A stretch of DNA of 42,149 nucleotides from the NCBI GenBank assembly GCA_964423225.1, contig CAYREE010000003.1:1-42149 (forward strand), read 5' to 3'. This DNA is from an uncultured archaeon. GTDB taxonomy: Archaea; Altiarchaeota; Altiarchaeia; IMC4; SCGC-AAA252-I15. A program made the translations under genes and the position numbers. The notes beneath the pieces were generated by a model. That model did no database searches and was not told the origin of the DNA. It saw nothing but the letters and a program-made list of their open reading frames with translations. Shown piece by piece: positions 9,597-38,901 of the stretch; positions within the stretch are counted from its first letter, which is position 1; each line of letters begins with the position of its first letter.

Positions 9597-11132
9597 ATGA
9601 GTCGATTAAAAACAAAGAAAACACCAAAAAAGACATTCCCAGTAATCCTGATAATAATGATCCTCGGATTATTATTACGCCTGCATTTTTTCGTTGGATT
9701 CAATTGGTCTGACTCACCAGCATATGTTGATGTTATCAGGAGGATCCTCACCGGACTAGACATGTCTTACGATAATATAATGGGTGTTCGATTACTAACT
9801 TATTATCCTGCCACATTCTTCCTCTGGTTATTTGGAATCAACGAGTACGCCCTAGCATTATACCCACTATTATGCTCGCTAGGCTCGATTTATCTCACAT
9901 ACCATATCGGAAAAATGATGTTCAATAAGGAAGTTGGACTATTAGCAGCATACCTACTTTCCATATTTCCATTAAACATCTATTATTCAACATGGATTCT
10001 ACCAGATGTCCCACTAGCATTCTACCATGCACTAGCCGCATATCTCTTTATAAGACGTGAATACTTTGACAAGAGGAATATACTCTACCTGTTATCAGGA
10101 ATTATTGTTGGACTATCATATCTTGTAAGAATAAGCGGGCCATTTATCTTGTTTTTTATCTGCCCAGTAATGATACACAAAATAATAAAGACCAAAAAAA
10201 TCGAAAAAGGATTGGTCTTATTCTTCATTGGAATATTATTGATATTCATATTTGAAACATTATTTTACTGGACCGTTACAGGGTCACCCGACCCGCTTTT
10301 CAGGATAAAAAGCGAATCCTTCTTCTGGGATGACACTGCCAGAGAGGATCGATTCAACACAGATCCCATGTTTCTGCCAAGAGAGATGCTAAGGCTAAGC
10401 ACAGACTACAGGTTCCTATATCAGGAAAAATATCACGCACACTTCGGATTCTTCTACTACTTGATAATACCCGCAATCATCTACGTGTTCTACAGAAAGG
10501 ATAAGAAGGCCTCATTGATCGCATTCTGGGCAGTATCCTTATTCCTATACCTAAATTTCGGGACCATGAACCCAGTTAAATATGTTCCGATACACCGACT
10601 TGTCAGACATAGTACGATATTCACCATACCCTCACTGATAATCCTCGCATATGTTTTAACAAAATTCTTACTTAAAAGCAGGATAAGATATCAGAGGTTT
10701 ATCGCATATTCAATCATAATTATAATCTCGACAACATCAGTATTCTATACTCACCACTATGTTAAAAGACTTAACATGGAGACCGATGATCTGAGAGAGG
10801 CTTACAAGATACTTGCAGGACTAAAACCAAGAGACATATACGTTGAACCGACAGCAAGAACTCATATGAACTTCCACTTCAAGTTCAAGAGAATGGACTC
10901 TATCAAATCAATAGAATTCTTAGAGAACTGCCATGAGATAGCTGACAGCTATGTAGTATTGAATGTAAGAAAAGAATTCGTCTTCGATGAGAACGCAAAA
11001 AAGATAATCCCCGAATGTTTTCAGAATCCGCCTGGATACTGGGTACAACTTGGAAAAGTCAAGGGCGATGACATGGGGAGATATGATGAATTCGATCCAA
11101 TAATTTATTATGCGCCGTTAATCCCAAGTTAA
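9597..11132 (+). CDS. GT-C-fold polytopic glycosyltransferase (PMT_2/ArnT-like, GT39/GT83-type), paralogue group 1
   Basis: About 511 aa (ORF track starts at the TTG at 9591; ATG at 9597) with more than 10 hydrophobic segments. N-terminal loop LRLHFFVGFNWSDSPAY; TWILPDVPLAFY. A soluble C-terminal domain carries a conserved Cys pair. It is a clear paralogue of 26394..27953, 21817..23364 and 23367..24920. Confidence 0.75.
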   Translation: MSRLKTKKTPKKTFPVILIIMILGLLLRLHFFVGFNWSDSPAYVDVIRRILTGLDMSYDNIMGVRLLTYYPATFFLWLFGINEYALALYPLLCSLGSIYLTYHIGKMMFNKEVGLLAAYLLSIFPLNIYYSTWILPDVPLAFYHALAAYLFIRREYFDKRNILYLLSGIIVGLSYLVRISGPFILFFICPVMIHKIIKTKKIEKGLVLFFIGILLIFIFETLFYWTVTGSPDPLFRIKSESFFWDDTAREDRFNTDPMFLPREMLRLSTDYRFLYQEKYHAHFGFFYYLIIPAIIYVFYRKDKKASLIAFWAVSLFLYLNFGTMNPVKYVPIHRLVRHSTIFTIPSLIILAYVLTKFLLKSRIRYQRFIAYSIIIIISTTSVFYTHHYVKRLNMETDDLREAYKILAGLKPRDIYVEPTARTHMNFHFKFKRMDSIKSIEFLENCHEIADSYVVLNVRKEFVFDENAKKIIPECFQNPPGYWVQLGKVKGDDMGRYDEFDPIIYYAPLIPS

Positions 11133-11138
11133 CCGAAA

Positions 11139-11717
11139 ATGAATCTGAAAACCCCGATAAGTGAAACTGATGTTCGCAACCTAAACATCGGAGATGTAAT
11201 AGAGATAACTGGGACACTAGTCATAGGACGTGACATGGCCCACAAACACATGATAGACAAAAACCAGGATCTGCCATTTGATCTAAAGGGTGGGGTAATC
11301 TATCATTGCGGACCAGTTGTGGCAAAAAAGGGTAGTGCCTGGGAGATGATATCATGTGGACCGACCACTAGCATCAGACAAGAGCCATATGAAGAGGAAG
11401 TGATTAATAGATATGGGATAAAAGCAGTGATAGGAAAGGGTGGTATGGGCGATAAAACACTAAAAGCATTGAAAAAACAGGGGTGTGTATATCTTGCAGC
11501 AACAGGTGGAGCCGGCGCAATACTTGCTAAAAAGGTTGTAAAAATAAAAGAAGTATACATGCTCAAAGAATTCGGTATACCAGAAGCCTTCTGGATTCTT
11601 GAAGTCAATCGTTTCGGGCCTCTAATAGTCGCAATGGATTCCCATGGAAAAAGCATATACAAAGATGTCGAAGAAACCTCACAGATTAAATTAAATGAAA
11701 TACTAAATGAGTTATGA
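11139..11717 (+). CDS. Class I (Fe-S) fumarate hydratase family, beta subunit
   Basis: 192 aa; GDVIEITGTLVIGRDMAHK, IYHCGP, IGKGGMG. Typical C-terminal (beta) hydro-lyase domain. Confidence 0.85.
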   Translation: MNLKTPISETDVRNLNIGDVIEITGTLVIGRDMAHKHMIDKNQDLPFDLKGGVIYHCGPVVAKKGSAWEMISCGPTTSIRQEPYEEEVINRYGIKAVIGKGGMGDKTLKALKKQGCVYLAATGGAGAILAKKVVKIKEVYMLKEFGIPEAFWILEVNRFGPLIVAMDSHGKSIYKDVEETSQIKLNEILNEL

Positions 11718-12058
11718 TGATAAGCATATTGAAGAGTAAGATACATAATGCAAGAGTCACTTCAGCAAACTTGGAGTATGTTGGAAGCATCACGATTGAT
11801 AAAAGACTTGTTGAAGCGGTAGGACTATATGAATATGAAAAGGTCCTAGTATCTAATCTTACCAACGGCAGCAGATTTGAAACCTATGTGATACTCGGAC
11901 AAGATGAGGGAAAAATACAGGTTAATGGAGCAGCAGCAAAGATAACCGCGGAAGGAGACAGGATCATAATAATGAGTTTTAGACTATTGGAAGAAACAGA
12001 TGTCGGAAAGTATAAGCCAGTAATAATCATAGTTGACGAAGACAACAAGATAGTCTGA
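11714..12058 (+). CDS. panD: Aspartate 1-decarboxylase, pyruvoyl-dependent (PanD)
   Basis: 114 aa. KSKIHNARVTSANLEYVGSITID aligns residue-for-residue with E. coli PanD [23 protein letters not shown], including the Gly24-Ser25 self-cleavage site (11783-11788). TNGSRFETYVI and VNGAAA are also present. ATGA overlap with the preceding gene. Confidence 0.9.
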   Translation: MMISILKSKIHNARVTSANLEYVGSITIDKRLVEAVGLYEYEKVLVSNLTNGSRFETYVILGQDEGKIQVNGAAAKITAEGDRIIIMSFRLLEETDVGKYKPVIIIVDEDNKIV

Positions 12059-12167
12059 CAACAATACTCATTTTTTCTTTTTAAAAGCATCGAAAAACAT
12101 TCCAAAACCAAGTTTCATCTCGCTAAAACCATATTTCACAATACTCAACCATAAACCAAAAAGATCT

Positions 12168-13442
12168 TTAAGCTTCAACTATATCCGCTCCAATACTTGT
12201 CATTAAAGGCTTGAAATTCGGGAAGGTAACATCAACAAAATCTGCCCCAGTTATCTTCGTTGTCCCAGATGCAGACAAGCCAGCAACAGCAAGAGACATG
12301 ATAATACGATGATCATGCCAACCATCAACAATACCTCCTGAAAGATCCCCTCCTCTAATCGTCAGACCATCATCTCTCTCATCGATAGACGCGCCCATCT
12401 TACCAAGTTCAGATGCCATAGCCTTGATACGATCACACTCCTTTAAACGAGCATGAGAAGCATTAACAATCCGGGTAGTACCCTCAGCAAAACAACCCAG
12501 GACCGAAACAATAGGCACAAGATCCGGAGCATCGCTTAAATCAACTGTAATCCCAGTCAATGAACCCCCACCACAAACTTCAACTAGATCACCTAAAACA
12601 TTTATCTCAGCACCCATCTCAACGAGAATATCAATGATTTTCTTATCGGCCTGAAGAGAATTCTTAAATAAATTACTGACAACCAGCTTCGATTCCATAA
12701 GAGCGGAAGCAGAAAGAATGAATGCCGCACTACTATAATCACCCTCAACAACATACTCTGTAGGCTTATAAACCTGGCCACAAGCCACATGAAACTTCCG
12801 ATAATCCTTGTTCTTAACTTCAACACCAAAACAAGACAAGATATCTAGTGTGAGATCGATATATGGCCTCGATTTCAAGGATGTAGTCACTTCAACAACC
12901 GTATCTTGCAGGCCATACGGAGCCGCCATAAGGATCGCACTTATGAACTGGGAACTCACATCACCAGCAATACCACACTCACCACCCTTGAACGGACCCT
13001 TCACTGTATGAGGTGGATATCCACTAGTTGAAGTAGTATCCACTCCAAGATGAGATAATGCGTCAAGGAGTGGTTCGATAGGCCTGGATTTAATAGAGTC
13101 ATCTCCGGTTAAGCTTATCTTGGATTTTGACAAGGAGGCGATTGCAGTTAGAAGCCTTATTGATGTGCCAGAATTCATAAGATCCAATACTTTTCCCGGA
13201 TTGTTTATTTGACCGGAATTACCAGTGATATACATATGATCTTCTTCTTCGGTTATTATTGCACCAAGCTCTCTGCAAGCGTGTATACACGCATTTGTGT
13301 CTGCAGAGTAAAGTGGATGATGAATAATATTTTCCCCTTCAGATAGCATACCAGATATCACTGAACGTATAGTATAGCTTTTACTTGCAGGTGCATTTAC
13401 ACGCCCATCAATTTTCGTTGTTGGTTTGACTAGATAGTCCAT
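12168..13442 (-). CDS. aroA: 3-phosphoshikimate 1-carboxyvinyltransferase (EPSP synthase)
   Basis: 424 aa; PASKSYTIR, LMNSGTSIRLL, SSQFISAILMAAP, HDHRIIMSLAVAGL are classical AroA blocks. Confidence 0.9.
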   Translation of the reverse strand: MDYLVKPTTKIDGRVNAPASKSYTIRSVISGMLSEGENIIHHPLYSADTNACIHACRELGAIITEEEDHMYITGNSGQINNPGKVLDLMNSGTSIRLLTAIASLSKSKISLTGDDSIKSRPIEPLLDALSHLGVDTTSTSGYPPHTVKGPFKGGECGIAGDVSSQFISAILMAAPYGLQDTVVEVTTSLKSRPYIDLTLDILSCFGVEVKNKDYRKFHVACGQVYKPTEYVVEGDYSSAAFILSASALMESKLVVSNLFKNSLQADKKIIDILVEMGAEINVLGDLVEVCGGGSLTGITVDLSDAPDLVPIVSVLGCFAEGTTRIVNASHARLKECDRIKAMASELGKMGASIDERDDGLTIRGGDLSGGIVDGWHDHRIIMSLAVAGLSASGTTKITGADFVDVTFPNFKPLMTSIGADIVEA

Positions 13443-13456
13443 TATATGAAGCCTTA

Positions 13457-15127
13457 TTATATTGTATTTAATTTATAGAAATTGAATACCCAGCTCTCAT
13501 AAGTCTCTATAGTCGATATTTTTTCCAGATGATAAGATTTCTTGATGAAATCACATATCCGGTCATTAGGCGGACTATAACACCAATAACCCTCTAGAAA
13601 ATACGCACAACCATTATCCTCAATGGTTTTTTCCACAAAGTCTGGATTTAATGCCAACATTGCAGACATCGTATTTTGTCCCTGAAATACTGTGACCGCT
13701 GGATTATTCGTAAAAACCACGCAATTATCATCTATTTCATTCACGTTTTTTATCGCAAAATCTCGGAAGATACGGGGTGATTCAGCCTGAATATCAACGG
13801 AAGATATGAAACTTACTGTAGGTAGGAATGTGATGACAGTTAAAAACGTAATAAAAAATAGTGCATCACGCCGATTAGCATATCTTCCAATCAAACGTAC
13901 CGATCTATTCGCACCCCATGAAGCAAGAATAATTAACGGTGGATAACATAGGACAGTATATCGAAATCCAATCCCACCTGAAGTGAAACTCCCTGCATAA
14001 AAAAAGAGATATGAGAGGAAAAACATGAAAAACCATGCGAAAAGAATAGGTCCAAGATAACTCTTACGCCTGATCAGAGAAACCAGACCTATCAGGGCAA
14101 ATGGAGTTAAAACAAGGAGGTGTCTACGACCATTAAACCAATAGGAGGTATTATCAGTCCAGTTCCTATCCATATAATCATACTGGAATTTACCTTCTTC
14201 CGCACCCCAATCATGGATCTGACTAAAGTAGTTAAGATGCGTGAAATGCAGGAGTGAGAACATTACAAAAATAGTCGTGAAATAGAATATATCCTCCATA
14301 AAAATATTGATGCCAATCTTTCTTGCATTCAATAACAATATTAAAAAAACAACGGGAATCATTATCAATGATTCCGGACGAGATTGGACAGCGAATGCAA
14401 GAAATCCCGCGCAACTAAAAAGAAGTGTATAAGACCTCTTCCGCACATAAGCAATGCAGAAAACAACAGATAATAACGATGGGAGAGTATGATAAATCTC
14501 ACTAGACAATGATCCAGTCCAGACTATATGTGCTGGAGTCAATGCAAGGAACAATGCGGAAAATAATGCAGTCTGCTCATCATCGAACATTATATATGTA
14601 AGGAGGAAGATGGCAAGGATAGACAATACAGATATGAGGATGTTAAAAGCATATGCATTAAACTCATTAACACCGAATACAAGATAAAACAGAGATAATG
14701 AATAAGGCAGGGCATTAGGATGTTTATCTATCTCACCCCGCATGCATTTACCGTCAATCCATTCGACAGTACAGTATAAGGCACGTCCAGAAGTGACCAT
14801 CTCTTTTGCTATCTGCATGTATATATCCTCGTCGAAAAGGATCCGGTGGACATTAGGTGGGAGATACACTCTAAGAGACAATCCAATGAGGAATATTATG
14901 CTAAGAAACACAATCACCTTCTTATCGAACCTGAATATCTCAGATAAGACAACCCTTGAACGATATACACAGTAGGCTGTGATTATAGTAGTAATAGATA
15001 AGACAATGAAATAAAAGTAGGGTGTTGAATCGGATTTGAAGTATTCCTCACGGGGAAATAATACTATAAATCCTGAGACCAATAACAATGATACCAGGAT
15101 TATATTATTATACGACTTATCCTCCAT
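13457..15127 (-). CDS. GT-C-fold polytopic glycosyltransferase (PMT/ArnT-like), divergent 556-aa paralogue
   Basis: More than 10 hydrophobic segments. The first extracytoplasmic loop carries FDEDIYMQIAKEM (a DE-x-x-Y acidic motif). The C-terminal soluble domain is Cys-containing. Its start overlaps the carbamoyltransferase stop by 11 nt. Confidence 0.65.
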   Translation of the reverse strand: MEDKSYNNIILVSLLLVSGFIVLFPREEYFKSDSTPYFYFIVLSITTIITAYCVYRSRVVLSEIFRFDKKVIVFLSIIFLIGLSLRVYLPPNVHRILFDEDIYMQIAKEMVTSGRALYCTVEWIDGKCMRGEIDKHPNALPYSLSLFYLVFGVNEFNAYAFNILISVLSILAIFLLTYIMFDDEQTALFSALFLALTPAHIVWTGSLSSEIYHTLPSLLSVVFCIAYVRKRSYTLLFSCAGFLAFAVQSRPESLIMIPVVFLILLLNARKIGINIFMEDIFYFTTIFVMFSLLHFTHLNYFSQIHDWGAEEGKFQYDYMDRNWTDNTSYWFNGRRHLLVLTPFALIGLVSLIRRKSYLGPILFAWFFMFFLSYLFFYAGSFTSGGIGFRYTVLCYPPLIILASWGANRSVRLIGRYANRRDALFFITFLTVITFLPTVSFISSVDIQAESPRIFRDFAIKNVNEIDDNCVVFTNNPAVTVFQGQNTMSAMLALNPDFVEKTIEDNGCAYFLEGYWCYSPPNDRICDFIKKSYHLEKISTIETYESWVFNFYKLNTI

Positions 15128-16811
15128 TTCTATTTACAAAATAATCGCCAATAACTAAATATCTAGCCCCTGTTTTCAAAAACACGTCGATAGCATCATC
15201 AGGAGTGTTTACAATAGGATAACCATGAAGATTATAACTAGTATTCAATACAACACCATATCCAGTTTTTTCTTTAACAGTCTCTAAAAGCCTTCTAAAC
15301 ACCGGATTCTCATCATCCAACATTTGAGGGCGTGCAGATCCATCCACATTTATCACAGAATCCATGTGACCAAGCATATCTTTTTTCACCATATAACCCA
15401 TAGTCATAAAACGGTCAAACTGATCAACATCTTCAAACAATACTTTAGCATCTTCTGAAAGAAGAGACGGACAGAAAGGCTGGAACCAATTCCTCTTCTT
15501 AATCTTAAGATTCAACTTATCCTTGATATCAAGAGAGTCAGCAGGTGCAAGAATACTCCGGTTCCCAAGAGCTCTCGGACCAAACTCCATCCTACCCTGA
15601 TACCACAGTAAAAAATTACCCTTTGATATTAGATCACCTGCAAGTTCAGGTGCATCATCCCTTTTCTCATAGCTAATATTATTTTTCCTAAGGGCTTTCT
15701 CAATCAGTGGAGCAGTATAGTCAGGTCCAAAATACACGTTTTTAACATCAGTTGATTTCATATTGTTCTCCAACATACTCGCATATAATGCAGTCCCAAC
15801 TGCAAGGCCTCCATCACCCATATGCGGGAAAACAAACCATTTCTTCAGCTTTGGATTCGTCCTAATTTTAAGATTCACTTTTATGTTCGAGGCAACTCCT
15901 CCAGACCAGCATACGTTTCGCACACCTGTTTCTTCGATAGCATTCTCAAATAACTGGCAGATATGCTTTTCCAATGTTCTTTGAGCCATATAGGCAAGTT
16001 CTTCGCGTGGAGTATTCCAAAGTATCTTCTTTAGCATTCGATACTTCCCCAGGGTTGAATACTTGCATCTGACATTCATACCGTCTACTTCGAAGAAATC
16101 AATAAGCTTGTTCTCTTCATCAGGGATGGGAAATGCATAATCTGACAATGCCATAACCTTTCCCTCATCCTCCAGTTCTCGCATACCTAGTAGATCAGTG
16201 ACCTGTTCAAAGAACAATCCAAATGAATCCCTTGCCTTTATCGATGAAACGAATTCTATCCCACCATCTTCGTATATACCCACAGTACCGGATAAGGCAT
16301 CACCCACACCATCAAGTGTGATGACAAGGGATTTCTTGAACCCACTACTTAAGGCGGATGCTGCGGCATGAGCATAGTGATGCCCGACAAAATCAAGTCG
16401 ATAATCCTTAAAACCCAGCTTATCAAGGTCTCTTCTAATCAGAAACTCTGATACCTTACGGCAAAAGGGTAGTTCAGGTATCTCAGTAACAGTATGCTTA
16501 AAAGTCTTTCTAAACTCGACTAAAGAGGGTTTATTCGTCTTCCTCCGCCTGAAAAGATAGTAATTGTCCTTCATTGAAGGGAATACACGGGTTAAAGTCT
16601 TCCCAAAATCAGATGTGTTACAAGCAACCAGACCAATATCTGCAGGCTTTAACTTTAAATAATCAAGACATGACTTGATAGACTCGCTTGGAAAGCCTAC
16701 ATGAAGTTTTTTACGGGTGATACGCTCCTCATTTACAGCAACAAGAACACTCTTCTCATCAACAATCGCGGCGCCCGCATCATGACCATCCCATATACCC
16801 AGTATATACAT
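15117..16811 (-). CDS. Carbamoyltransferase, NodU/CmcH family
   Basis: MYILGIWDGHDAGAAIVDE...VAVNEERITRKK (ASKHA/Kae1-like N-domain), HHYAHAASA, and the C-terminal YrdC-like part ...NTSYNLHGYPIV. 564-567 aa is the typical length. Confidence 0.85.
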   Translation of the reverse strand: MYILGIWDGHDAGAAIVDEKSVLVAVNEERITRKKLHVGFPSESIKSCLDYLKLKPADIGLVACNTSDFGKTLTRVFPSMKDNYYLFRRRKTNKPSLVEFRKTFKHTVTEIPELPFCRKVSEFLIRRDLDKLGFKDYRLDFVGHHYAHAAASALSSGFKKSLVITLDGVGDALSGTVGIYEDGGIEFVSSIKARDSFGLFFEQVTDLLGMRELEDEGKVMALSDYAFPIPDEENKLIDFFEVDGMNVRCKYSTLGKYRMLKKILWNTPREELAYMAQRTLEKHICQLFENAIEETGVRNVCWSGGVASNIKVNLKIRTNPKLKKWFVFPHMGDGGLAVGTALYASMLENNMKSTDVKNVYFGPDYTAPLIEKALRKNNISYEKRDDAPELAGDLISKGNFLLWYQGRMEFGPRALGNRSILAPADSLDIKDKLNLKIKKRNWFQPFCPSLLSEDAKVLFEDVDQFDRFMTMGYMVKKDMLGHMDSVINVDGSARPQMLDDENPVFRRLLETVKEKTGYGVVLNTSYNLHGYPIVNTPDDAIDVFLKTGARYLVIGDYFVNRNGG

Positions 16812-16822
16812 GCTAAACAACC

Positions 16823-18226
16823 TTAGATGTTACAGATAAAATTAACGCCAGTCCTTATTAAAGAGGGTAGCTCGCGTACTCCAAAGATGCGCAACATATT
16901 TGTAATAGACCTAGGACGCAGATAAAAACGCCTATAAGCCTTATTTCTTGCCGATTCAAGATCCATATCCTTTGAAATCACATTATTTGCATACTCGAAT
17001 GAATCCCAGCTTTTCCCATCTAAATCATCTTTATGTCGTTCATACAAAGGGGACCCTGGAAACGGTGTAGCAACATAGTATTCCGCAAAATCCAGGGGAA
17101 GATCAAGGGAAAACCTTAGAGTCTGCCGGATTGTATCTATATTCTCCCCAGGTAAACCGAACACAAAATGGCCGACCGTCGCAATCCCTGCATCATGAGC
17201 AAGTTTGACTGCCCTCTTAGAATCTTCAACCTTTATCCCTTTTTTAATATTGTCAAGCACTTCCTGGCTGGACGACTCTAATCCAAATGATATCATCCAA
17301 CATCCAGAAGCCCTCATCAGCTCAAACATTTCGGCATCAACAGTATCCACCCTACTATTACAGAACCATCTGACATCCAATCCTTCATCAATGATCGCCT
17401 GACAAAGGTCTAATACATGTGATTTATCAAGTGTGAAAGTTTCAGCGAAAAAATATAGATCTCTGACCCCAAGTTTCACAGCATGCTTGATCTCCCGGAT
17501 AATGTCTTCAACACTCCTTTTCCTGTATTTCCGACCATAGTAGAATGGGGCCACACAAAAACTACATTCAAATGGACAACCCCTACCAGTCGTGATCAAT
17601 ACATACTTACGACCGAAGACTGGTACTTTATAATTAGACAAGTCAACAAGATCCCAGGCTGGAAGCGGCAGACAAGACAAGTCCATAGCCGACCTTGATG
17701 GATTTTTAATTAGCCTTCCATTCTTGACATATGCAATTCCCGTGACTTTTTCAATCGGTTTAGAAACAAGGTCTTCTAGGGTAGATTCCGGTTCTCCGAA
17801 AATAACTCCATCTACATGACCATGATTTAGAACAGTCTCCCATAGGCTTGAAGCATGGACACCATAGACAAATACCCTACAATCCACTAGCTCACGGATT
17901 CTAGATATGAAATCCATATCATGCAGGAAAGTTGGCGTAGTAGTATTTAAGACAATCAAGTCCGGTTTGAACGATTTGATTTCATCAAGGACTGAAGACT
18001 CAATCATTGAAGCCCCCATAGCATCTATCAGCTTGACATCAGCAACATCCCTGATCATTGAGGCCATATATGCGAGTGTCATAGGAGGATAGACCGATGA
18101 GAAAACAGCTGCCTTATGCTGGCAACGACCTTCTTTCACATACAAGGATTCTGCCGGAGGGTTCAGTAATAATAGCCTAATTTTACACCACCCATAAACG
18201 AGTATAAATGGATTATTATACCTCAA
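16823..18226 (-). CDS. B12-binding-domain radical SAM enzyme (class B rSAM)
   Basis: The N-terminal Rossmann-like IRLLLLNPP...PPMTLAYMAS...DLIVLNTTTP is a cobalamin-binding-domain pattern. TTGRGCPFECSFCVAP is the CxxxCxxC rSAM cluster motif. The start codon is uncertain: the track uses the TTG at 18224-18226 and there is no in-frame ATG near the N-terminus. Confidence 0.8.
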   Translation of the reverse strand: MRYNNPFILVYGWCKIRLLLLNPPAESLYVKEGRCQHKAAVFSSVYPPMTLAYMASMIRDVADVKLIDAMGASMIESSVLDEIKSFKPDLIVLNTTTPTFLHDMDFISRIRELVDCRVFVYGVHASSLWETVLNHGHVDGVIFGEPESTLEDLVSKPIEKVTGIAYVKNGRLIKNPSRSAMDLSCLPLPAWDLVDLSNYKVPVFGRKYVLITTGRGCPFECSFCVAPFYYGRKYRKRSVEDIIREIKHAVKLGVRDLYFFAETFTLDKSHVLDLCQAIIDEGLDVRWFCNSRVDTVDAEMFELMRASGCWMISFGLESSSQEVLDNIKKGIKVEDSKRAVKLAHDAGIATVGHFVFGLPGENIDTIRQTLRFSLDLPLDFAEYYVATPFPGSPLYERHKDDLDGKSWDSFEYANNVISKDMDLESARNKAYRRFYLRPRSITNMLRIFGVRELPSLIRTGVNFICNI

Positions 18227-18290: not shown

Positions 18291-18869
18291 TTGAATAATA
18301 TCCACAGAAATATTGTATTAACAATCATACTAGCCATACTGATTTCTATAGGATGTATTTCGTATATGAAAAGTGATTTGGGGGTAGCAGACGATCTTCA
18401 AACCGTGATTAACGACGCCCTTAAAGACAAGAATGTGAAATACTGTTTTGACAGGCTGGGTGACAATAAGATTGACGTGGGAACCTGCATAATGACTGTT
18501 GCAAAAAACCTTAGTAATCCAAGGATATGCAATCAGTTCTGGAGTGTTGAAACCATGTCAGAATGCCTTTTTGAAGTCGCTAAGATACAGGAGAATGCTC
18601 AACCATGCGAACGGATCCCTTTTGACTCACCATATAAGTCAAAATGCAAATCTTATTTGAAGAATATCGCGGTTGATAAAATGAAGGTCGTAATGTGTAA
18701 GAAACTGATGGGTGAAGACAAGAACGATTGTCTGATAAGGATTGGCGAAAAGAGAAAAAGTGCGAGAATATGCACCAAACACTTTAAGAAAGGAACAGAG
18801 ATTCATACAACATGCCTATCTCGTGTAAAAGAGGCTAAAGAATCGGAAAAACAATTAGAAAATACTTGA
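18291..18869 (+). CDS. Predicted lipoprotein with five Cys-pair repeats (same family as 6820..7437)
   Basis: TTG start. The hydrophobic LTIILAILISIGC has a lipobox-like IGC (Cys22). Cys pairs at 52/66, 80/92, 106/119, 136/147, 161/175, with C-(I/L)-x3-(V/I)-(A/G) after the second Cys. Confidence 0.65.
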   Translation: MNNIHRNIVLTIILAILISIGCISYMKSDLGVADDLQTVINDALKDKNVKYCFDRLGDNKIDVGTCIMTVAKNLSNPRICNQFWSVETMSECLFEVAKIQENAQPCERIPFDSPYKSKCKSYLKNIAVDKMKVVMCKKLMGEDKNDCLIRIGEKRKSARICTKHFKKGTEIHTTCLSRVKEAKESEKQLENT

Positions 18870-18923: not shown

Positions 18924-20045
18924 ATGGGGAAAAAAATGAAAAAAGAGGGATTGCATGCTCTAGTATCCAAAAAAAAGGATAAATCCAAGGATAAAGACCA
19001 TTCATTTCAAGAAATGACCAAGACAGCGATAATCATCTTAGGTATCGCTATCATAGCTGTGATCTTCTTCTATCCAGGATCGGTTTCCCAGGATGATGAG
19101 GGTACCCAGGAGATAACCACAGATACCACTATTTCAGGCAATAATCAACAAACAATACAGAACAATCCACTAACAAAAGAGGAACAGATAAAAACCCAGA
19201 CAGGAAAAGAATCAAGCACAACTCAAGTAGAACAAATACAAAGAGAGGATGAGAATCTAAATGCTTCTCGCATATACAGTCCATATAAGATATTCAAGGA
19301 TATATACTGGATCGACGCACCAGGAAATATCCGAGCCCGAGGAGCATATGCTTTAAACACTTCAAAAGGATTTGTACTCATAGACACAGGATGTAACAAA
19401 GGATTAAAACAGCTAATAAAAAACCTGAAGACGATTGGAGTGAACCCAAACAAGATATTCCATGTATTAAACACACATGGCCACGGCGACCACTGTGGAG
19501 GAAATGAATACTTCCAGAAAAAAGGCGCAAAGATAGTCATACACGAAGATGATGTCGAAGCTCTTCAAACAGGTGATGAACAATTATACTGCAAATATTG
19601 CTGTCCTAAAGGGCTTAACCCGGTAACACCAGACATAATACTAAAAAACAGGCAGAAACTCAATTACAAAGACAAAAAATTAATTGTAAAATACTTTCCA
19701 GGACATACGCCAGGCAGCGTGATATTTTTGTTTAGAACCAATTACTCAAATAGTAGTATAAACATCTACTTCACAGGCGATACACTTCTCGGACCAGGAT
19801 GGTATGCGCATTGGCTAGGAAATAAATATTCAAACCTCACCCAATTCGCATCATCAGTAAAAAGACTTGAAAAAGAGACATTAAAAGATCCAGAAGATGA
19901 TAAATATCTGATCATCCCAGGCCACATAAAACCACATAAAGAATGGACATTCAAGATAACCGATAGAACCGATTTCCTAAAAAACCTGAAGGTAATCCAT
20001 AAAAAGATACTATTAAGGAAAAATGCTACAGGAGATATTCTATGA
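18924..20045 (+). CDS. Membrane-anchored metallo-beta-lactamase-fold hydrolase
   Basis: N-terminal basic segment plus one TM (TAIIILGIAIIAVIFFY), a Thr/Gln/Glu-rich linker, then an MBL domain with GFVLIDTG and the HxHxDH motif NTHGHGDHCGG. Confidence 0.8.
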   Translation: MGKKMKKEGLHALVSKKKDKSKDKDHSFQEMTKTAIIILGIAIIAVIFFYPGSVSQDDEGTQEITTDTTISGNNQQTIQNNPLTKEEQIKTQTGKESSTTQVEQIQREDENLNASRIYSPYKIFKDIYWIDAPGNIRARGAYALNTSKGFVLIDTGCNKGLKQLIKNLKTIGVNPNKIFHVLNTHGHGDHCGGNEYFQKKGAKIVIHEDDVEALQTGDEQLYCKYCCPKGLNPVTPDIILKNRQKLNYKDKKLIVKYFPGHTPGSVIFLFRTNYSNSSINIYFTGDTLLGPGWYAHWLGNKYSNLTQFASSVKRLEKETLKDPEDDKYLIIPGHIKPHKEWTFKITDRTDFLKNLKVIHKKILLRKNATGDIL

Positions 20046-28761: not shown

Positions 28762-28762
28762 T

Positions 28763-29245: not shown

Positions 29246-29907
29246 AAGACTTCCATAATAATGCGTTTTAATATACGCCAGCCATCACTAATCGTCCCAA
29301 GCTTTCCCACTCCAGACTTTCGTGCCTTCTCAAAACTTGGTACTTCAAGAGTCCTTAACTTGTTTTTAGCAGCTTTAATAGATATTTCAGTTTCAATACC
29401 AAAACCATCTTCAGTAAGTTCAAGGTCTTTTATAACCTCTCGTCTAAAGGACCGGTATCCGTAACAGAGGTCTGAATAATTTGTCCTCCATAAAGTATTT
29501 ACCATTTTTACGAACATCCAGTTGCCAAACTTGCGTATTAGACTGATATCCTCACTTCCTCCACCTTGTATGAACCTAGAGCCCATACAAATATCATAAC
29601 CCGCTTCTATACCTGCGATAAGAAGTATTAGCTCGCTTGAAAGATGTGAGCAATCAGCATCCATCATAATAATAATGTCTCCTTTACCTTCGTTCATACC
29701 GATTCTGAGTGCAGATCCCTTCCCTTTATCATCAAAAAGGACGGTTAATCCCTTATCCTCTGCTATTTTAGCTGTATTATCCTTTGAATACCCATCGACG
29801 ATTATTATCTCATCGATGAAATCCGGTAGGGTTCCCAGAACAACAGGTAGGTTTTCCTCCTCATTTAACGTAGGAATGATTACTGTTATGCTTTTTCCAT
29901 AAAACAT
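29242..29907 (-). CDS. GT2-family glycosyltransferase, dolichyl/polyprenyl-phosphate sugar synthase-like (DPM1/AglD-type catalytic domain, no TM)
   Basis: 221 aa; ITVIIPTLNEEENL, IIIVDGYSKDNT, IIIMMDADCSH (DxD region). The short soluble GT-A architecture is typical of polyprenyl-P-mannose/glucose synthases. Confidence 0.8.
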   Translation of the reverse strand: MFYGKSITVIIPTLNEEENLPVVLGTLPDFIDEIIIVDGYSKDNTAKIAEDKGLTVLFDDKGKGSALRIGMNEGKGDIIIMMDADCSHLSSELILLIAGIEAGYDICMGSRFIQGGGSEDISLIRKFGNWMFVKMVNTLWRTNYSDLCYGYRSFRREVIKDLELTEDGFGIETEISIKAAKNKLRTLEVPSFEKARKSGVGKLGTISDGWRILKRIIMEVL

Positions 29908-32539: not shown

Positions 32540-33820
32540 TTATAAGGATAATCCAGCAGCCTTTAACCAGACTTTACCTTTTTCCACTATTTCATCCAGT
32601 TTTTCCCTTGTTCTGGCTTCAGCAGTTATCCGCATATAGGGCTCTGTGCCTGATGGACGAATCAACATCCAACAGTCTTCATCTTGCACTCGAACACCAT
32701 CGATCGTAGTATAGTCCATTGAAATAATATTTTCTAAAGAATCCATGATTTTCTCTTTCTCGGAATCTGGACATTCGAGCTTAAGCCTTACTACTGGATA
32801 AGAAGGTATCTTATCGATAAGATCATAAAATACTCCCTCATCAACCATCTTTACAGTCTTGGCGATAGTAGCTACTCCATCAGGATATATGTGGATATCA
32901 GGGAAAATGTATGTTCCAGACGGTTCTCCCCCAAATCCCGCATTATTAGCCCGAATACCATCTGCAACCGAAACATCACCAACAGGAACCCTCACTACAT
33001 TATCGCACATATCCTCGATACGCATACTAGCATCAACAGTGGTAACGACAGTCTTATGCCCGTAAGAAAGCGCAGTAAGAAATGAATCCCATTCTATCAG
33101 ACTACCATCCCCCGAGATCGCGCATGTCCTATCAGCATCCCCGTCATGAGCAAACGCAATATCAAAATCACCGTCTCCCACCAATTTTAAAGTATCTGAA
33201 AGATTGTTTTCAGTAGGCTCAAGAGGATGGGGAAAAACACCATCAGTATTATCGTTAATAACAGTAACATCACAACCCATCTCGGTTAAAAGCATAGGCG
33301 TTATCGTAGAACCACTCCCACCAGAACAATCAACCAATACACGCAAATTATTACGAACACATCCAACAGAACCAAGGACAAGTTCCATATGCTTTGAAAT
33401 ATAATCCTCACTACTCTGACAGCCCGAACCAGATGCAAACTCGCCCTGATCCAACATTCCCTCAAGCAACCCTTCTTCACCAGGACTAAATGCTCCCAAC
33501 CTACTCCAAAACTTAAAACCATTATAATCAGCGGGATTATGAGATGCAGTCACCATCACACCAACCCCATACTCACTTGTTGCAACACCAACAGTAGGAG
33601 TAGTAACAACACCAAGTTCAACAACATCCTTGCCAGTCGACAATACTCCAGAAATGAACGCACTCTCAATAAGCGGGCCAGAGATACGTGTGTCACGCCC
33701 ACAAGCAACAACTTTAGAATCAGTAGATGATCCCAACGCCTTCCCCAAATCAACTGCGAAATCAAGGGGTATGTCCGAGACCTTTCTCCTAATACCTGAT
33801 GTTCCAAATAATCCAGTCAT
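32540..33820 (-). CDS. Alpha-D-phosphohexomutase (phosphoglucosamine mutase / phosphomannomutase / phosphoglucomutase type)
   Basis: 426 aa; GTSGIRRKV, TASHNPADYNGFKF (phosphoserine loop), FAHDGDADR (Mg loop), GGEPSG, RPSGTEP (phosphate-binding loop). The sugar specificity cannot be read from the sequence. Confidence 0.85.
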   Translation of the reverse strand: MTGLFGTSGIRRKVSDIPLDFAVDLGKALGSSTDSKVVACGRDTRISGPLIESAFISGVLSTGKDVVELGVVTTPTVGVATSEYGVGVMVTASHNPADYNGFKFWSRLGAFSPGEEGLLEGMLDQGEFASGSGCQSSEDYISKHMELVLGSVGCVRNNLRVLVDCSGGSGSTITPMLLTEMGCDVTVINDNTDGVFPHPLEPTENNLSDTLKLVGDGDFDIAFAHDGDADRTCAISGDGSLIEWDSFLTALSYGHKTVVTTVDASMRIEDMCDNVVRVPVGDVSVADGIRANNAGFGGEPSGTYIFPDIHIYPDGVATIAKTVKMVDEGVFYDLIDKIPSYPVVRLKLECPDSEKEKIMDSLENIISMDYTTIDGVRVQDEDCWMLIRPSGTEPYMRITAEARTREKLDEIVEKGKVWLKAAGLSL

Positions 33821-33826
33821 TTACAC

Positions 33827-34765: not shown

Positions 34766-34878
34766 CGTAGGATAAGTATTTTATTAGAAATTAATAAAAA
34801 GTGGATGAATAATAGATTACACGAGAAATCCAGGTATTATAACAGAATTAATCAATATACTGATGAGTTTTAATTCAG

Positions 34879-36210
34879 ATGACCAATGATAAAAACAGAC
34901 TTTATAAAAAGTATATAACAATCATCCTATCATGCTTGCTGATTGGTGAAATAGTATTTCTAATCCCAATAATCACAATAACAGAGAGGGTAGGTGATGA
35001 AGTATACTGGCTTCAAAACTCATATTTCTACTATCTATTCTTCATTGAAAAAGACGTATCGAACAGGGACTGGAGGGGTATGCATTCAATAGACCAACCC
35101 CCATTAGGAAAATACATTATGGGATTCGCATTAGATCAGATAAACGAAAAGAGGGTAACAAATTATAACGGACTAACAAGATGGCAGGAAGACTACATAA
35201 ATGAGAACATAATAAAGGTCAGGGAATGCCAGGAGGAAATATGTATACGATACAAGAACCTGATAAACGAGGGAAAGAGAAGGGGAGCAATCCCTAAGAT
35301 CACGCTAAAAGATATTTATGTGGGAAGGCTCGTATCCTATTCATTCACAATACTAACCCTCCTTGCCATTATCCTACTATGTAATAAAGTGTTTGATAGT
35401 AGTCTGACAGGAATAATCGCTTCACTAGTCTTCCTAAACAACCTCCTTACAATACCCACAATCATCCACGCATATGTAGATCCAATATGCTATTTTTTCA
35501 TGATTATGTCAGTCTACACGATGATACAGTTATATAAGAAAATCGAGTCTGAGAACTACAGAAAAACCGTGGAATATTCAATTACTACCGGGGTTCTAAC
35601 TTCACTTGCAATCAGTACGAAATTCGTTTCAATAAGCATGATAGCCACACTCGGAGTAATATATTCCATAGGTTTTATCCTTGCCCTCAGTAGAAAACGG
35701 ATAAAAACAATTAAAATAATATTCATCTCACTGATAATACTTTCTATAACAGGGATATTCACGTTCATAATCCTTAATCCATTCCTATACCAAAACCCGA
35801 TTAAAAACTCCATGACAATAATCCAACACCGTCAATTAGTGATGGACATCCAGACATATGCACATAACATAAAAAAACCAACAATAACCGAAAGGATGCA
35901 TACCGCATATATGAAGGGAATCCTACTAGACTCATCAAAACACAATAACTACTTGATGATAGTAATAAGTGGATTATTCCTCATTGGATTATCAAAACTA
36001 ATAAACAAAACAATAATAGAACTAAAGAAAGTCGCCTTGGGCCCCTATTCAATAATCATGATATGGATGCTGTCAACATACATAATACACGGCAACTTTG
36101 TGCATATAGAATGGAACAGATATTTCATGGGAATGGCACTTGCCACAAGCATGATAATAGCGTTAAGCATCCAAGAAATATCATCAAGATGTTTTACTGA
36201 AAATGGATAA
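34879..36210 (+). CDS. PMT-like GT-C glycosyltransferase (GT39-type motifs), tandem paralogue 1 of 3
   Basis: 443 aa, polytopic. The first loop carries GDEVYWL (DE at 34996-35001) and SIDQPPLGKYIMGF (35095-35112). Compare the eukaryotic/bacterial PMT DE motif and DVHPPL(A/G)K. Confidence 0.7.
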   Translation: MTNDKNRLYKKYITIILSCLLIGEIVFLIPIITITERVGDEVYWLQNSYFYYLFFIEKDVSNRDWRGMHSIDQPPLGKYIMGFALDQINEKRVTNYNGLTRWQEDYINENIIKVRECQEEICIRYKNLINEGKRRGAIPKITLKDIYVGRLVSYSFTILTLLAIILLCNKVFDSSLTGIIASLVFLNNLLTIPTIIHAYVDPICYFFMIMSVYTMIQLYKKIESENYRKTVEYSITTGVLTSLAISTKFVSISMIATLGVIYSIGFILALSRKRIKTIKIIFISLIILSITGIFTFIILNPFLYQNPIKNSMTIIQHRQLVMDIQTYAHNIKKPTITERMHTAYMKGILLDSSKHNNYLMIVISGLFLIGLSKLINKTIIELKKVALGPYSIIMIWMLSTYIIHGNFVHIEWNRYFMGMALATSMIIALSIQEISSRCFTENG

Positions 36211-37555
36211 ACAAGAGAATAATCACGTGAAAAAGATGTTAAACAGGTCTATCACAGATTATCTTGCCATCATAATCACAGTCTTTTTAATCCTTGAACT
36301 AGTACTAATCATACCCTCACTCTGGACGAACAGAAAGATAATAGATGAAGGATACTGGCTACACAGCTCATACTTCTACTATCTCTTCTTCATAAAAAAG
36401 GATATGGATCACAGAGACTGGTATAGCATGTATTCCATAGACCATCCACCACTAGGCAAATACATCATGGGATTCACGCTAGACATGATAAATAACAAAC
36501 GGATTGAAAACTATGATGGCCTGGCGAAATGGTTCGAACGATATAAATGCAAATCCAATCTATGCGATTATTTCCGAAAAAGAATAGATGAATACAAGCC
36601 AATAGGAAACATGCCAGAAATAACAATAGAGGACTTGTTTGTCGGAAGAATGGTATCATATACATTCACCGCATCAATACTGATTATCTTAGTAATTCTG
36701 GCCTCAATAACCTTCGATAAAAAGGCGGTTGGAGTGATAGCAGCCATGATATTCATAAACAACAAGGTAACATCGCCAATATTCCTGCATGCCTACATGG
36801 ATACTGCACCATATTTCTTCGTGCTAATAACAATAGTCTTCATAATCAAGACCCTGGAGAATATTAGAACCAATGATAATAGAAAAATAGTCATATATTC
36901 CATCTTCACAGGCATATTTGCCGTGCTTGGCCTAAGCACAAAGTTCTCTGCAAGCTATGTGATAATCACAATCATTATCATATACTTTACCAGCAGCCTA
37001 TTGGCATTGAGAAATAAGCAGAAGGCAAATGTAAAAATGTTCTTAAAATCAGCGTTTATCACCTCTATCATCGGGATAATCCTGTTTATAAGCCTTAATC
37101 CACTCCTATACAAAGATCCGATAGGAGGGATAAAACAGATGATCGAACATCGTCAGAGCGTAATATTCATCCAAAACCATTTCCTTGATGAACGAGTATC
37201 AGGCCTATATGAAAAAATCAGGATAATCTATTTGAAAGGCATACTACTAGACAGTAAAACAGGGTTTGGATTATTATCCATTACTCTAACAATATTATTC
37301 TTCCATGGATTATCAAACCTTTTGAAAAACATGAAGAAAGAAATAATAAAAGGCTATCTTGGCCAGTACTCAATAGTGACTATCTGGTTGGCAACATCAT
37401 ATATCTTCATAGGATACTTCGTCCACATGTCATGGAATAGATACTTCATAGGGATGGCATTGTCAACCAGCATAATAATATCCTATGCCATCATCAAGAT
37501 ACTCTCGGATTTAGAGGCAAATATCCTTGAGAGAATAGCGGATGATAAAACATGA
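36203..37555 (+). CDS. PMT-like GT-C glycosyltransferase, tandem paralogue 2 of 3
   Basis: 450 aa; IDEGYWL, SIDHPPLGKYIMGF. 8-nt overlap with paralogue 1 (ATG at 36203-36205; upstream TAA at 36208-36210). Confidence 0.7.
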   Translation: MDKQENNHVKKMLNRSITDYLAIIITVFLILELVLIIPSLWTNRKIIDEGYWLHSSYFYYLFFIKKDMDHRDWYSMYSIDHPPLGKYIMGFTLDMINNKRIENYDGLAKWFERYKCKSNLCDYFRKRIDEYKPIGNMPEITIEDLFVGRMVSYTFTASILIILVILASITFDKKAVGVIAAMIFINNKVTSPIFLHAYMDTAPYFFVLITIVFIIKTLENIRTNDNRKIVIYSIFTGIFAVLGLSTKFSASYVIITIIIIYFTSSLLALRNKQKANVKMFLKSAFITSIIGIILFISLNPLLYKDPIGGIKQMIEHRQSVIFIQNHFLDERVSGLYEKIRIIYLKGILLDSKTGFGLLSITLTILFFHGLSNLLKNMKKEIIKGYLGQYSIVTIWLATSYIFIGYFVHMSWNRYFIGMALSTSIIISYAIIKILSDLEANILERIADDKT

Positions 37556-38901
37556 GTAATAAAAAAAACTTCTACAAATCGATACCTAGTCCAAGAATCC
37601 AGGATTATGCCATTCCAATACTAGTTATCTTTCTTATATGCGAACTAATCATTATCTTCCCCTCCAATCCGCCGGAAATCATTATGGTTGATGAAATGTA
37701 CTGGCTCCAAAGCTCATACTACTACCACCTATACTTCATTGAAAACGACTTTACAAACAAAGACTGGAAAGACCAGACCGCGATCGACCAACCTCCATTT
37801 GGAAAATACTTGTATGGATTCGTACTAGACCTAGTCAATAATAAGAGAGTAACAAACAACCAGGGATTATACGAATGGTTCAGGATAGACATGGAAAGAT
37901 GCAAAGTGAGAAATCCAACCGACGTGAAAAAATGCGAATACTTCCTAAAGGAAGAACAATACGAGAAAGAATTAAGTATTAATAATATCGATGGTAAAGA
38001 CGTGCATCTTGGAAGAATAATAACATTCACATTTCTAGCAGGGATAATCATCGCATTAAATGCAATATCCCTGTTTTTCCTAAAGAACAAGCCAATAGGA
38101 GTGATTGCAAGCCTGTTTTTCATAAACAACACGGTAACATTAAAGACTATCATACCGACAACCGTTGACACCTTCTGCTATTTCATATCCACTATGACGA
38201 TAATAACGCTTATCATACTCCTTCAAAACATGGAAAAAAACAATCAAAAAAAGATAATAACCAAATCTATTGCATTAGGATTACTGCTCTCCATCGCATT
38301 AAGCACAAAACTAGTAACAGCATATAACGCAGTGACAATAACACTAGTATACCTCATTATCATCATCCTAAAGATATATGACAAGAAAAATCCGATGAAA
38401 CAACTAGTATCATTATCCATAGTAATACTAACCAGCATCACCCTCTTTATCGCATTAAACCCGGCATTACATACAGACACGTTTGAAACCATACAAAAAA
38501 CGATAATACTCAGGCAAGAAGCCATAGAATTCCATGCAAACTTCGTCCCAAACACGATACGAAACCCCAGCCAGAGAATTGACGCAATAATCTCCAAAGG
38601 AATACTACTTGACACAACAAAAGAAAACATCATCCTCCTACTATTCATCCTCATATCACTTCTATACGGAGTACGAAGACTCCTTAAAAACACGCAAGAA
38701 GAGATAAGCCACCGGAATATCGGACCCTACACGATAATTCTCCTATGGTCAATATCCGCATATACTGTGAACGGATACTTTGTACCCGTTGCCTTCGCGA
38801 GATATTTCATGGGAATGGTCTTATGCACAAGCATAATACTTGCAATAGGCCTCAATGATATAGCCTTAAAAATCCACGAGAAAAAGAATCCCAGCCCCTG
38901 A
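37552..38901 (+). CDS. PMT-like GT-C glycosyltransferase, tandem paralogue 3 of 3
   Basis: 449 aa; VDEMYWL, AIDQPPFGKYLYGF. ATGA overlap with paralogue 2. Confidence 0.7.
   Translation: MSNKKNFYKSIPSPRIQDYAIPILVIFLICELIIIFPSNPPEIIMVDEMYWLQSSYYYHLYFIENDFTNKDWKDQTAIDQPPFGKYLYGFVLDLVNNKRVTNNQGLYEWFRIDMERCKVRNPTDVKKCEYFLKEEQYEKELSINNIDGKDVHLGRIITFTFLAGIIIALNAISLFFLKNKPIGVIASLFFINNTVTLKTIIPTTVDTFCYFISTMTIITLIILLQNMEKNNQKKIITKSIALGLLLSIALSTKLVTAYNAVTITLVYLIIIILKIYDKKNPMKQLVSLSIVILTSITLFIALNPALHTDTFETIQKTIILRQEAIEFHANFVPNTIRNPSQRIDAIISKGILLDTTKENIILLLFILISLLYGVRRLLKNTQEEISHRNIGPYTIILLWSISAYTVNGYFVPVAFARYFMGMVLCTSIILAIGLNDIALKIHEKKNPSP

Follow-up and report, generated by a model that had tools for sequence, protein, structure and literature searches.

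AglS of Haloferax volcanii is a dolichyl phosphate (Dol-P)-mannose mannosyltransferase and a distant relative of the protein O-mannosyltransferases (PMTs), as described by Lombard (2016, PMC4973528, citing Cohen-Rosenzweig 2012). In the AglD/AglS system presented there, an archaeal enzyme of glycosyltransferase family 2 (GT2) charges dolichyl phosphate, and a multi-spanning, PMT-related transferase other than AglB acts on a protein-bound N-glycan. The PMTs of eukaryotes and actinobacteria (GT39; Pmt1, Pmt2, and Pmt4) are proteins of 750 to 800 amino acids (aa) and work as dimers. In the ArnC-ArnD-ArnT pathway, a GT2 enzyme makes undecaprenyl phosphate (Und-P)-Ara4FN, the lipid-linked sugar is tailored by a deformylase, and ArnT, a glycosyltransferase of the GT-C fold, transfers it in the periplasm. 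Bacterial three-component systems (GtrA/GtrB/GtrC, or a polyprenyl-phosphate-ribose synthase with a MATE flippase and GT136) likewise combine a polyprenyl-phosphate sugar synthase with a GT-C enzyme for extracytoplasmic, post-assembly glycosylation. Here, we compare these systems and the oligosaccharyltransferase AglB/STT3 (GT66) with a locus of an uncultured archaeon assigned to the Altiarchaeota (assembly GCA_964423225.1, contig CAYREE010000003.1), in which eight genes for predicted GT-C glycosyltransferases lie within 30 kb; the whole stretch analyzed, 42,149 nucleotides long, is referred to as the window.

We consider it likely that all eight genes encode real GT-C glycosyltransferases (GT-C_A fold) that belong to the PMT/ArnT superfamily and are probably active, that they are located in an envelope-glycosylation region and transfer single lipid-linked sugars, and that they are not oligosaccharyltransferases. 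The genes are ordinary in kind, being subfamilies of a known superfamily accompanied by a known type of donor synthase, and the novelty is modest: a short PMT-like family devoid of MIR domains and a GT-C cassette coupled to a carbamoyltransferase. The original prediction for this locus had named AglB as the only GT-C enzyme with an established role in archaea, to which AglS, as described by Lombard (2016), is a counterexample. Nevertheless, archaeal GT-Cs other than AglB are almost unstudied, and the locus offers three uncharacterized subfamilies together with a likely donor synthase.

RESULTS AND DISCUSSION

Eight intact genes of the PMT/ArnT superfamily

The eight genes, designated A to H, are as follows.

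9591/9597-11132, plus strand: GT-C A, group 1a, 511-513 aa
13457-15127, minus strand: GT-C B, separate subfamily, 556 aa
21817-23364, minus strand: GT-C C, group 1b, 515 aa
23367-24920, minus strand: GT-C D, group 1b, 517 aa
26388/26394-27953, plus strand: GT-C E, group 1a, 519-521 aa
34879-36210, plus strand: GT-C F, short PMT-like family, 443 aa, opens the triplet
36203-37555, plus strand: GT-C G, short PMT-like family, 450 aa, middle of the triplet
37552-38901, plus strand: GT-C H, short PMT-like family, 449 aa, ends the triplet

All eight are full-length open reading frames (ORFs) with neither frameshift nor internal stop, and their summed length of 11,916 bp (11.9 of 29.3 kb) bears out the earlier figure of about 12 kb of coding sequence. 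Positions 9597 (A) and 26394 (E) mark the first ATG, two codons into ORFs initiated by TTG. C and D are spaced by 2 nt and D is 7 nt from the upstream gene of a sulfatase-family protein, and these short gaps suggest an operon. In the triplet, F and G overlap by 8 nt and G and H by 4 nt; operon-type spacing at the locus consists of overlaps or of gaps of 2 to 14 nt. The arrangement of E, D, and C recurs at 99.8 to 100% identity on an independent JGI contig (L001), and therefore, an assembly artifact can be ruled out as the source of the arrays.

Pfam analysis gave above-threshold matches for six of the eight proteins. PMT_2 (PF13231; gathering threshold, 26.1 bits) is matched by A to E with 44.4 to 52 bits (A, 45.4; B, 49.4; C, 44.4; D, 52; E, 48.9) and is unmatched by F, G, and H. 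PMT (PF02366; threshold, 22.7 bits) is exceeded by A (34.7 bits), C, D, E (35.3 bits), and F (26.7 bits), with no match for B. The MIR domain found no Pfam match in any of the eight. For the ArnT equivalog PRK13279, B reached 17.3 bits against a cutoff of 567, and the other seven proteins were unmatched.

Pairwise BLASTP identities are 37% for A/E, 58% for C/D, and 28% for A versus C/D, in line with the claim that A/E and C/D are the closest pairs; F/G share 44%, F/H 36%, and G/H 36%, and the similarity of B to group 1 is marginal (~1e-4). Judged from these sequence relations, there are three homologous subfamilies: group 1 (1a, A and E; 1b, C and D), the B type, and the short, MIR-less, PMT-like F/G/H. 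Profile-profile comparison ties them together: the group 1 profile matches the triplet-family profile with a Prob of 96.7 (E = 3.9e-10), and hhalign of the B family against group 1 gives a Prob of 97.2 (E = 4.8e-11), with the F-D-E-D of B aligned to the S-D of group 1. Profiles were needed for this purpose, as searches of PDB sequences with D, B, or F as single sequences gave nothing useful. A word-indexed homologue search was also weak on these membrane proteins, returning four matches for D and, for G, only G itself, with F and H missed.

When F, G, and H were used in an exhaustive profile search, 931 cluster representatives were found at E ≤ 1e-3, and 45 passed E ≤ 1e-30. The triplet family is small, and its members, wherever they have a name, are called only "hypothetical protein." PF02366 is matched by 38 of 43 family members, the family profile finds yeast Pmt2 (1.4e-11), Chaetomium thermophilum Pmt4 (6.2e-10), and further Pmt1 and Pmt4 sequences down to 7.6e-5, and H scores 454 bits against the triplet-family hidden Markov model (HMM). 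F, G, and H resemble the PMTs in these matches, in the Asp-Glu pair of loop 1, and in the structural similarity of G to C. thermophilum Pmt4 (CtPmt4; TMq, 0.54); they differ in their length of ~450 aa (300 aa shorter than Pmt1, Pmt2, and Pmt4), in lacking MIR domains, and in a match confined to the core from transmembrane helix 3 (TM3) to TM6. For group 1, the closest relatives of D are P0003 (44%) and P0004 (41%), the latter named as a GT39 family member from Candidatus Altiarchaeota archaeon, and a scan of genome contigs with the group 1 alignment returned three loci.

Fold and active-site motifs

An AlphaFold2 model of G, built from a 43-sequence alignment, has a pLDDT of 93.8, a pTM of 0.92, and ~13 long helices; a model from a three-sequence alignment (pLDDT, 50.8) was unusable. 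In a Foldseek search of the PDB with the former, the top 24 matches are all GT-C enzymes (AglB, STT3, Pmt4, ArnT, ALG3, AftA, Emb, and ALG9/12) at a TMq of ~0.5, led by Archaeoglobus AglB (AfAglB; 3.3e-4; TMq, 0.54), yeast STT3, CtPmt4 (TMq, 0.54), and ArnT (TMq, 0.51). Multiple hydrophobic segments were seen in all eight proteins in a crude hydropathy scan. The profiles and the G model agree with the claim of eight GT-C-fold transferases in 30 kb, and the concern that several might not be glycosyltransferases was not borne out.

An acidic residue directly after the first core transmembrane helix (loop 1) is kept in 8/8 proteins. The motif reads N-x-S-D in A, C, D, and E, F-D-E-D in B, and D-E-x-Y-W in F, G, and H; that is, loop 1 carries Asp-Glu in B, F, G, and H and Ser-Asp instead in group 1. 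A, for example, has N-W-S-D (Asp39) and W-I-L-P-D, and H retains D-E-M-Y-W. D41 is invariant in the group 1 alignment, D99 and E100 are invariant among 12 B homologues, and in the 43 triplet-family sequences D48 is invariant and E49 at least 90% conserved (G numbering). A second acidic motif is likewise present in all eight, as the Asp of W-x-[ML]-P-D in group 1, D200 in G with its equivalents in F and H, and the acidic residue of an S-L-S-S-E-type motif in B.

Comparison with AglB/STT3

The original prediction had stressed that none of the proteins carries an AglB/STT3 signature, and this holds. WWDYG, WWD, and WW[DE][YWFN]G occur neither in the eight proteins nor in a six-frame translation of the 42-kb window. 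The eight give no match to STT3 (PF02516) at E ≤ 0.01, nor is there an STT3 Pfam match among the ORFs of the window, and the scores for archaeo_STT3 (NCBIfam TIGR04154) are 13.1 bits for C and 23.9 bits for E against a cutoff of 450. With 443 to 556 aa compared to ~865 to 870 aa for the AfAglB chains, the proteins are about half as long and are without a C-terminal domain of the size found in AglB. What they share with AglB/STT3 is the GT-C_A core fold and a weakly aligned second acidic motif; when PDB sequences are searched with the group 1 profile, Archaeoglobus AglB comes out first, with an E value of 0.032 over TM3 to TM6 only. No aglB gene was found within the 42-kb window, a statement limited to that window.

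A B-type GT-C cassette with an O-carbamoyltransferase

B is the last gene of a cassette with two tailoring enzymes, and its start overlaps the stop of the carbamoyltransferase gene by 11 nt, the two genes being translationally coupled. The other two genes are the following.

16823-18226, minus strand: B12-binding radical S-adenosylmethionine (SAM) enzyme, cassette gene 1 (Pfam Radical_SAM and B12-binding)
15117-16820, minus strand: O-carbamoyltransferase of the NodU/TobZ/NovN type (Carbam_trans_N and Carbam_trans_C)

The best NCBIfam match of the radical SAM enzyme is HpnJ (222.8 bits, under the cutoff of 577.6), and the best PDB matches of the carbamoyltransferase are NovN (1.9e-62), TobZ (2.2e-57), and GdmN. 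Cassettes composed of a carbamoyltransferase and a GT-C gene, with (GT2) and (radical SAM) genes, were located at these positions.

13457-18226, minus strand: cassette of the window
6871-11631: cassette in L071
632-5347: cassette in L078
4625-11274: cassette in L007
4097-9688: cassette in L073
6075-11806: cassette in L074
5464-10705: cassette in L076
5350-11190: cassette in L077

In all nine contexts examined (the window, its sister genome, a second Altiarchaeota metagenome-assembled genome [MAG], a Woesearchaeota contig, and five further contigs), the carbamoyltransferase gene lies directly upstream of the B-type GT-C gene; a GT2 gene is adjacent in 7/9 and a radical SAM gene of the B12 or SPASM type present in 8/9. 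At least two of the five further contigs are clearly bacterial, with neighbors such as Wzz/Poly_export/BBP2_2 or a CHASE2 cyclase. The B12-binding radical SAM gene also stands beside the carbamoyltransferase gene in L071, L073, L074, and L078. The carbamoyltransferase is far better conserved than the GT-C, with identities of 79%, 57%, and 45 to 48% compared to 49%, 27%, and 26 to 27%.

The arrangement recalls ArnC-ArnD-ArnT: A to E belong to the PF13231 family that includes ArnT, the GT2 of the locus matches ArnC, and the B cassette joins a GT2, tailoring enzymes, and a GT-C in one operon. It differs in having an O-carbamoyltransferase and a radical SAM enzyme in place of a deformylase, in the unmatched ArnT equivalog, and in an archaeal host without lipid A. 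By analogy to that pathway, we infer that O-carbamoylation and modification by the radical SAM enzyme would act on a lipid-linked sugar, or on the precursor of such a sugar, before transfer by B. It is imaginable, though we regard it as tentative, that the radical SAM enzyme, the O-carbamoyltransferase, B, and the GT2 form an undescribed archaeal and bacterial pathway, which builds a tailored lipid-linked monosaccharide and transfers it to an extracytoplasmic envelope acceptor, with the other seven GT-Cs working on further Dol-P sugars. Our limited literature searches found no description of a carbamoyltransferase/radical SAM/GT-C cassette. If the pathway exists, the lineage would carry out most of its envelope decoration on the outer side of the membrane, adding single sugars one after another from lipid-linked donors in place of en bloc transfer through AglB; in any case, the pairing of carbamoyltransferase and GT-C across both domains is a concrete lead to a new cell envelope sugar modification.

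As a side observation, the cassette of the bacterial contig L073 is followed (9685-12806) by genes for a UbiA prenyltransferase, an FAD_binding_4 protein, and a short-chain dehydrogenase, with another PMT_2 gene nearby; the set is reminiscent of decaprenyl-phospho-arabinose synthesis (UbiA/DprE1/DprE2).

A predicted donor synthase and a possible route of sugar transfer

Between the group 1 genes and the triplet lie the following genes, of which the first two may supply the lipid-linked sugar.

29242-29907, minus strand: GT2, predicted dolichyl/polyprenyl-phosphate hexose synthase (PF00535, 86.9 bits)
32540-33820, minus strand: phosphohexose mutase of the archaeal GlmM/PMM type, sugar-1-phosphate supply (PGM_PMM domains I to IV; Arch_GlmM, 412 bits against a cutoff of 439)
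27961-29245, minus strand: two Cys-rich proteins of 266 and 160 aa (no Pfam or NCBIfam match)

The best PDB match of the GT2 is the Dol-P-mannose synthase of Pyrococcus furiosus (5mlz; 5e-21), followed by ArnC (3.8e-9) and GtrB, and its best NCBIfam matches are AglJ and Dol-P hexose transferase, both under their cutoffs; an enzyme of this kind is the classic maker of the donor for a GT-C. It is 73 to 75% identical to the GT2 encoded beside a GT-C in relatives and 57% identical to the one heading a Woesearchaeota operon. A GT2 gene adjoins a GT-C gene in L002, L003, L007, L073, L074, L076, and L077, and in three related loci the neighbor is a 1b GT-C. The Cys-rich pair has orthologues (33 to 49% identity) in the same position, beside the GT2/GT-C pair, in L002, L003, and L004. 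A polyprenyl-phosphate-linked donor for the GT-Cs is supported only indirectly, by the presence of this Dol-P-hexose-synthase-like GT2 in the locus.

In our model, the GT2 would charge dolichyl phosphate with a monosaccharide (hexose) in the cytoplasm. In the case of the B cassette, O-carbamoylation and a radical SAM step would then tailor this sugar while lipid-linked or as a precursor. After the lipid-linked sugar is flipped across the membrane, each GT-C would pass one sugar on to an extracytoplasmic acceptor of its own, be it Ser/Thr of a protein, an attached glycan, a lipid, or a polymer, with catalysis presumably via the conserved Asp after the first core transmembrane helix. The data show the family and fold of the proteins, the acidic motifs kept in all eight, the gene order with its conservation in relatives, and the pattern of duplication; the donor and acceptors, the order of the tailoring steps, and any difference in specificity between the paralogues are inferred. 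The model resembles AglD/AglS in combining an archaeal GT2 that charges dolichyl phosphate with multi-spanning, PMT-related transferases other than AglB; it differs in having eight transferases in three subfamilies instead of one and in the N-glycan acceptor of AglS. With the bacterial three-component systems it shares the polyprenyl-phosphate sugar synthase and the GT-C; in contrast to them, a flippase was not found in the window, and the GT-Cs are of the PMT/PMT_2 type and not GtrC or GT136.

Copy number and synteny

The archaeal character of the window (GC content, ~39%) is evident from genes for TruD, a GlmM of the archaeal type, the small subunit of replication factor C (RFC), a RadB-like ATPase, and a class I fumarase with two subunits. 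Among named relatives, two MAGs labeled Candidatus Altiarchaeota archaeon are the nearest; the NCBI spelling of the phylum is now Altarchaeota. Housekeeping proteins of the syntenic contig L002 are 57 to 83% identical to those of the window, for example RFC (83%), isoleucyl-tRNA synthetase (IleRS; 76%), and tryptophanyl-tRNA synthetase (TrpRS; 76%). The conserved backbone runs from IleRS, followed by zero, one, or three PMT-like genes, RFC, PGM/PMM, TruD, and zero or one PMT_2 gene, to a MazG-like small ORF, TrpRS, GT2, a 1b GT-C, the two Cys-rich proteins, and the sulfatase-family protein.

The closest relative, a sister genome known from contigs L003 and L071 of a single metagenome, is syntenic with 8.7 to 18 kb and 22 to 42 kb of the window. 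It has at least seven GT-C genes (490, 477, 527, 667, 558, 514, and 505 aa) in the syntenic ~34 kb, two of which are without a counterpart in the window. In a neighbor-joining tree, C and D pair together and are sister to single orthologues in L002 and L003 (39 to 42% identity), whereas F, G, and H are monophyletic, with a single orthologue in L003 (490 aa, 31% identical to F) and none in L002. Subclade 1a comprises A, E, two genes of the sister genome, and one Woesearchaeota gene; A is 38 to 40% identical to the two sister-genome proteins encoded in the fumarase slot, and E is 41 to 42% identical to the 505- and 514-aa proteins of the sister genome. A (plus strand) sits between the genes for the alpha (8711-9580) and beta (11139-11717) subunits of class I fumarase, and the same slot in the sister genome (L071, 13381-18723) holds two 1a GT-C genes and a SPASM radical SAM gene. 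Hence, this odd insertion site is conserved.

The in-paralogues C/D and F/G/H, each facing single orthologues in relatives, confirm the repeated duplication proposed originally. The tandem duplication of C/D, a recent one, and the triplication of F/G/H are specific to this genome, and the remainder is old diversification shared with relatives. What the window adds on its own is modest, namely, one more 1b gene and two more PMT-like genes. Because the closest relative carries at least seven GT-Cs in its syntenic ~34 kb, the density is typical of the lineage, and the count of eight is no surprise in itself; the condition that the original prediction named as speaking against it, routine densities of this kind in the lineage, largely applies. 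A wealth of GT-C genes, gained and lost in conserved slots, characterizes the lineage as a whole and is mostly ordinary growth of a gene family. Outside the lineage, 63 metagenomic loci with members of the triplet family, found in a scan with a nine-sequence alignment, mostly have one copy and occasionally two, a count for which the subfamily HMMs under-count other types of GT-C. Our literature searches yielded nothing relevant on GT-C expansion in Altiarchaeota or on PF13231 in archaea. It is plausible that the expansion reflects a structurally complex surface glycan or many acceptor specificities, as originally suggested; what we see is an uncultured lineage that is heavily invested in glycosylation outside the membrane.

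Neighboring genes for extracytoplasmic proteins

Three further genes between the fumarase slot and E encode proteins that may act outside the membrane.

24928-26295, minus strand: sulfatase-family (alkaline phosphatase superfamily), lipoprotein-like exoenzyme (PF00884, 166 bits)
20042-21811, plus strand: membrane-anchored type I phosphodiesterase/nucleotide pyrophosphatase family protein (PF01663, 85.6 bits; one N-terminal transmembrane segment)
18291-18869, plus strand: secreted or membrane-anchored Cys-rich repeat protein of 192 aa (N-terminal hydrophobic segment; no Pfam match)

The sulfatase-family protein has an N-terminal anchor with a lipobox-like L-F-G-C. Its nucleophile motif is W-T-T-P-S-L compared to C/S-x-P-x-R, with Thr where sulfatases have the precursor of formylglycine and Leu where they have Arg; the orthologues in L002 and L003 have W-T-L-P-S-L. 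The gene neighbors GT-C genes in relatives, too. Going by this motif, the product is probably a phospho(di)esterase or a transferase of the alkaline phosphatase superfamily and not a true sulfatase. Together with the phosphodiesterase and the Cys-rich proteins, it points to remodeling of the envelope outside the membrane.

Homology (E = 2e-12) connects the 192-aa Cys-rich repeat protein with the C-terminal domain of the 667-aa PMT_2 GT-C of the sister genome, encoded at the syntenic position (L071, 4740-6743, minus strand); the GT-C part of that fusion is missing at 18291-18869 in the window. Through this fusion, the Cys-rich secreted proteins found at the locus, including those at 27961-29245, are tied to GT-C function. 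A membrane-anchored protein of the metallo-beta-lactamase fold is encoded at 18924-20045 (plus strand) and shows subthreshold similarity to beta-lactamases of subclass B3 (99.5 bits; cutoff, 240); such a gene also stands beside the sulfatase-family gene in L002 (44% identity).

Points against the assignment and alternative explanations

Several findings weigh against eight active GT-Cs working together in envelope glycosylation. G has no Pfam match of its own, and H, with 21.5 bits for PF02366, falls just under the threshold of 22.7. The structure was modeled for G alone, so that the fold of the other seven, which are tied to G by profile-profile homology, rests on sequence profiles. The GT2 stays under every NCBIfam equivalog cutoff, and among the window ORFs of at least 100 aa, Pfam revealed no flippase of the GtrA, MATE, ArnE/F, or Wzx type, which may lie elsewhere. 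Furthermore, housekeeping genes (TrpRS, TruD, RFC, fumarase, and AroA) are interspersed, and co-function may not extend across the whole 30 kb.

With regard to the acceptors, lipids or lipoglycans could take the place of proteins, as in the action of ArnT on lipid A, and the GT-Cs would then decorate the membrane lipids of a double-membraned archaeon. PMT_2 includes ArnT, the JGI homologues are labeled "ArnT-like," ArnT is among the structural matches of G, and the sulfatase-family neighbor has weak matches to lipid-modifying transferases of the EptA/LtaS type; moreover, the lineage is labeled Altiarchaeota, and a double membrane has been described for the type organism of that group (Bird 2016, PMC4975002). 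However, B remains far below the ArnT equivalog cutoff (17 bits versus 567), the triplet family is nearer to the protein O-mannosyltransferases, and the double membrane is a feature described for the type organism rather than for this one. We therefore regard lipid acceptors as rather unlikely.

A second alternative is that several paralogues, chiefly the fast-diverging F, G, and H, are decaying or noncatalytic, which would bring the number of functional GT-Cs well below eight. The missing Pfam match of G and the subthreshold score of H would fit, as would the mutual identity of F, G, and H (35 to 44%), which makes them more divergent than many orthologues in other lineages. However, all eight ORFs are full length and undisrupted, the translationally coupled overlaps of F/G and G/H are preserved, G is modeled confidently as a complete GT-C, and F, G, and H keep each of the 31 positions at which an alignment of nine family members shows no variation, including the D-E motif, D200, K247, and R317. 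Decay is therefore quite improbable.

Replacement of AglB by these proteins can be rejected. Least credible of all is that there is a divergent oligosaccharyltransferase among the eight, most readily in group 1, whose members have a C-terminal soluble domain of ~120 aa, which would move whole lipid-linked glycans to Asn: although AfAglB is the best PDB match of the group 1 profile (E = 0.032, TM3 to TM6) and tops the Foldseek list of G, E weakly matches archaeo_STT3 (23.9 bits), and the window is without aglB, the proteins have no WWDYG-like motif, no STT3 Pfam match, NCBIfam scores of 13 to 24 bits versus a cutoff of 450, and 443 to 556 aa versus ~870 aa in AfAglB, the equivalent Foldseek scores of AglB, Pmt4, and ArnT (TMq, 0.51 to 0.54) reflect the common GT-C core and not a specific kinship, and aglB may sit elsewhere in the genome.

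Other genes in the window

Near the upstream end, the window encodes a type III glutamine synthetase (3112-5214, plus strand; GSIII_N, 248 bits) in an archaeal context, and it begins with the truncated gene of a GT4/GT1-type (GT-B) glycosyltransferase (51-854, minus strand).

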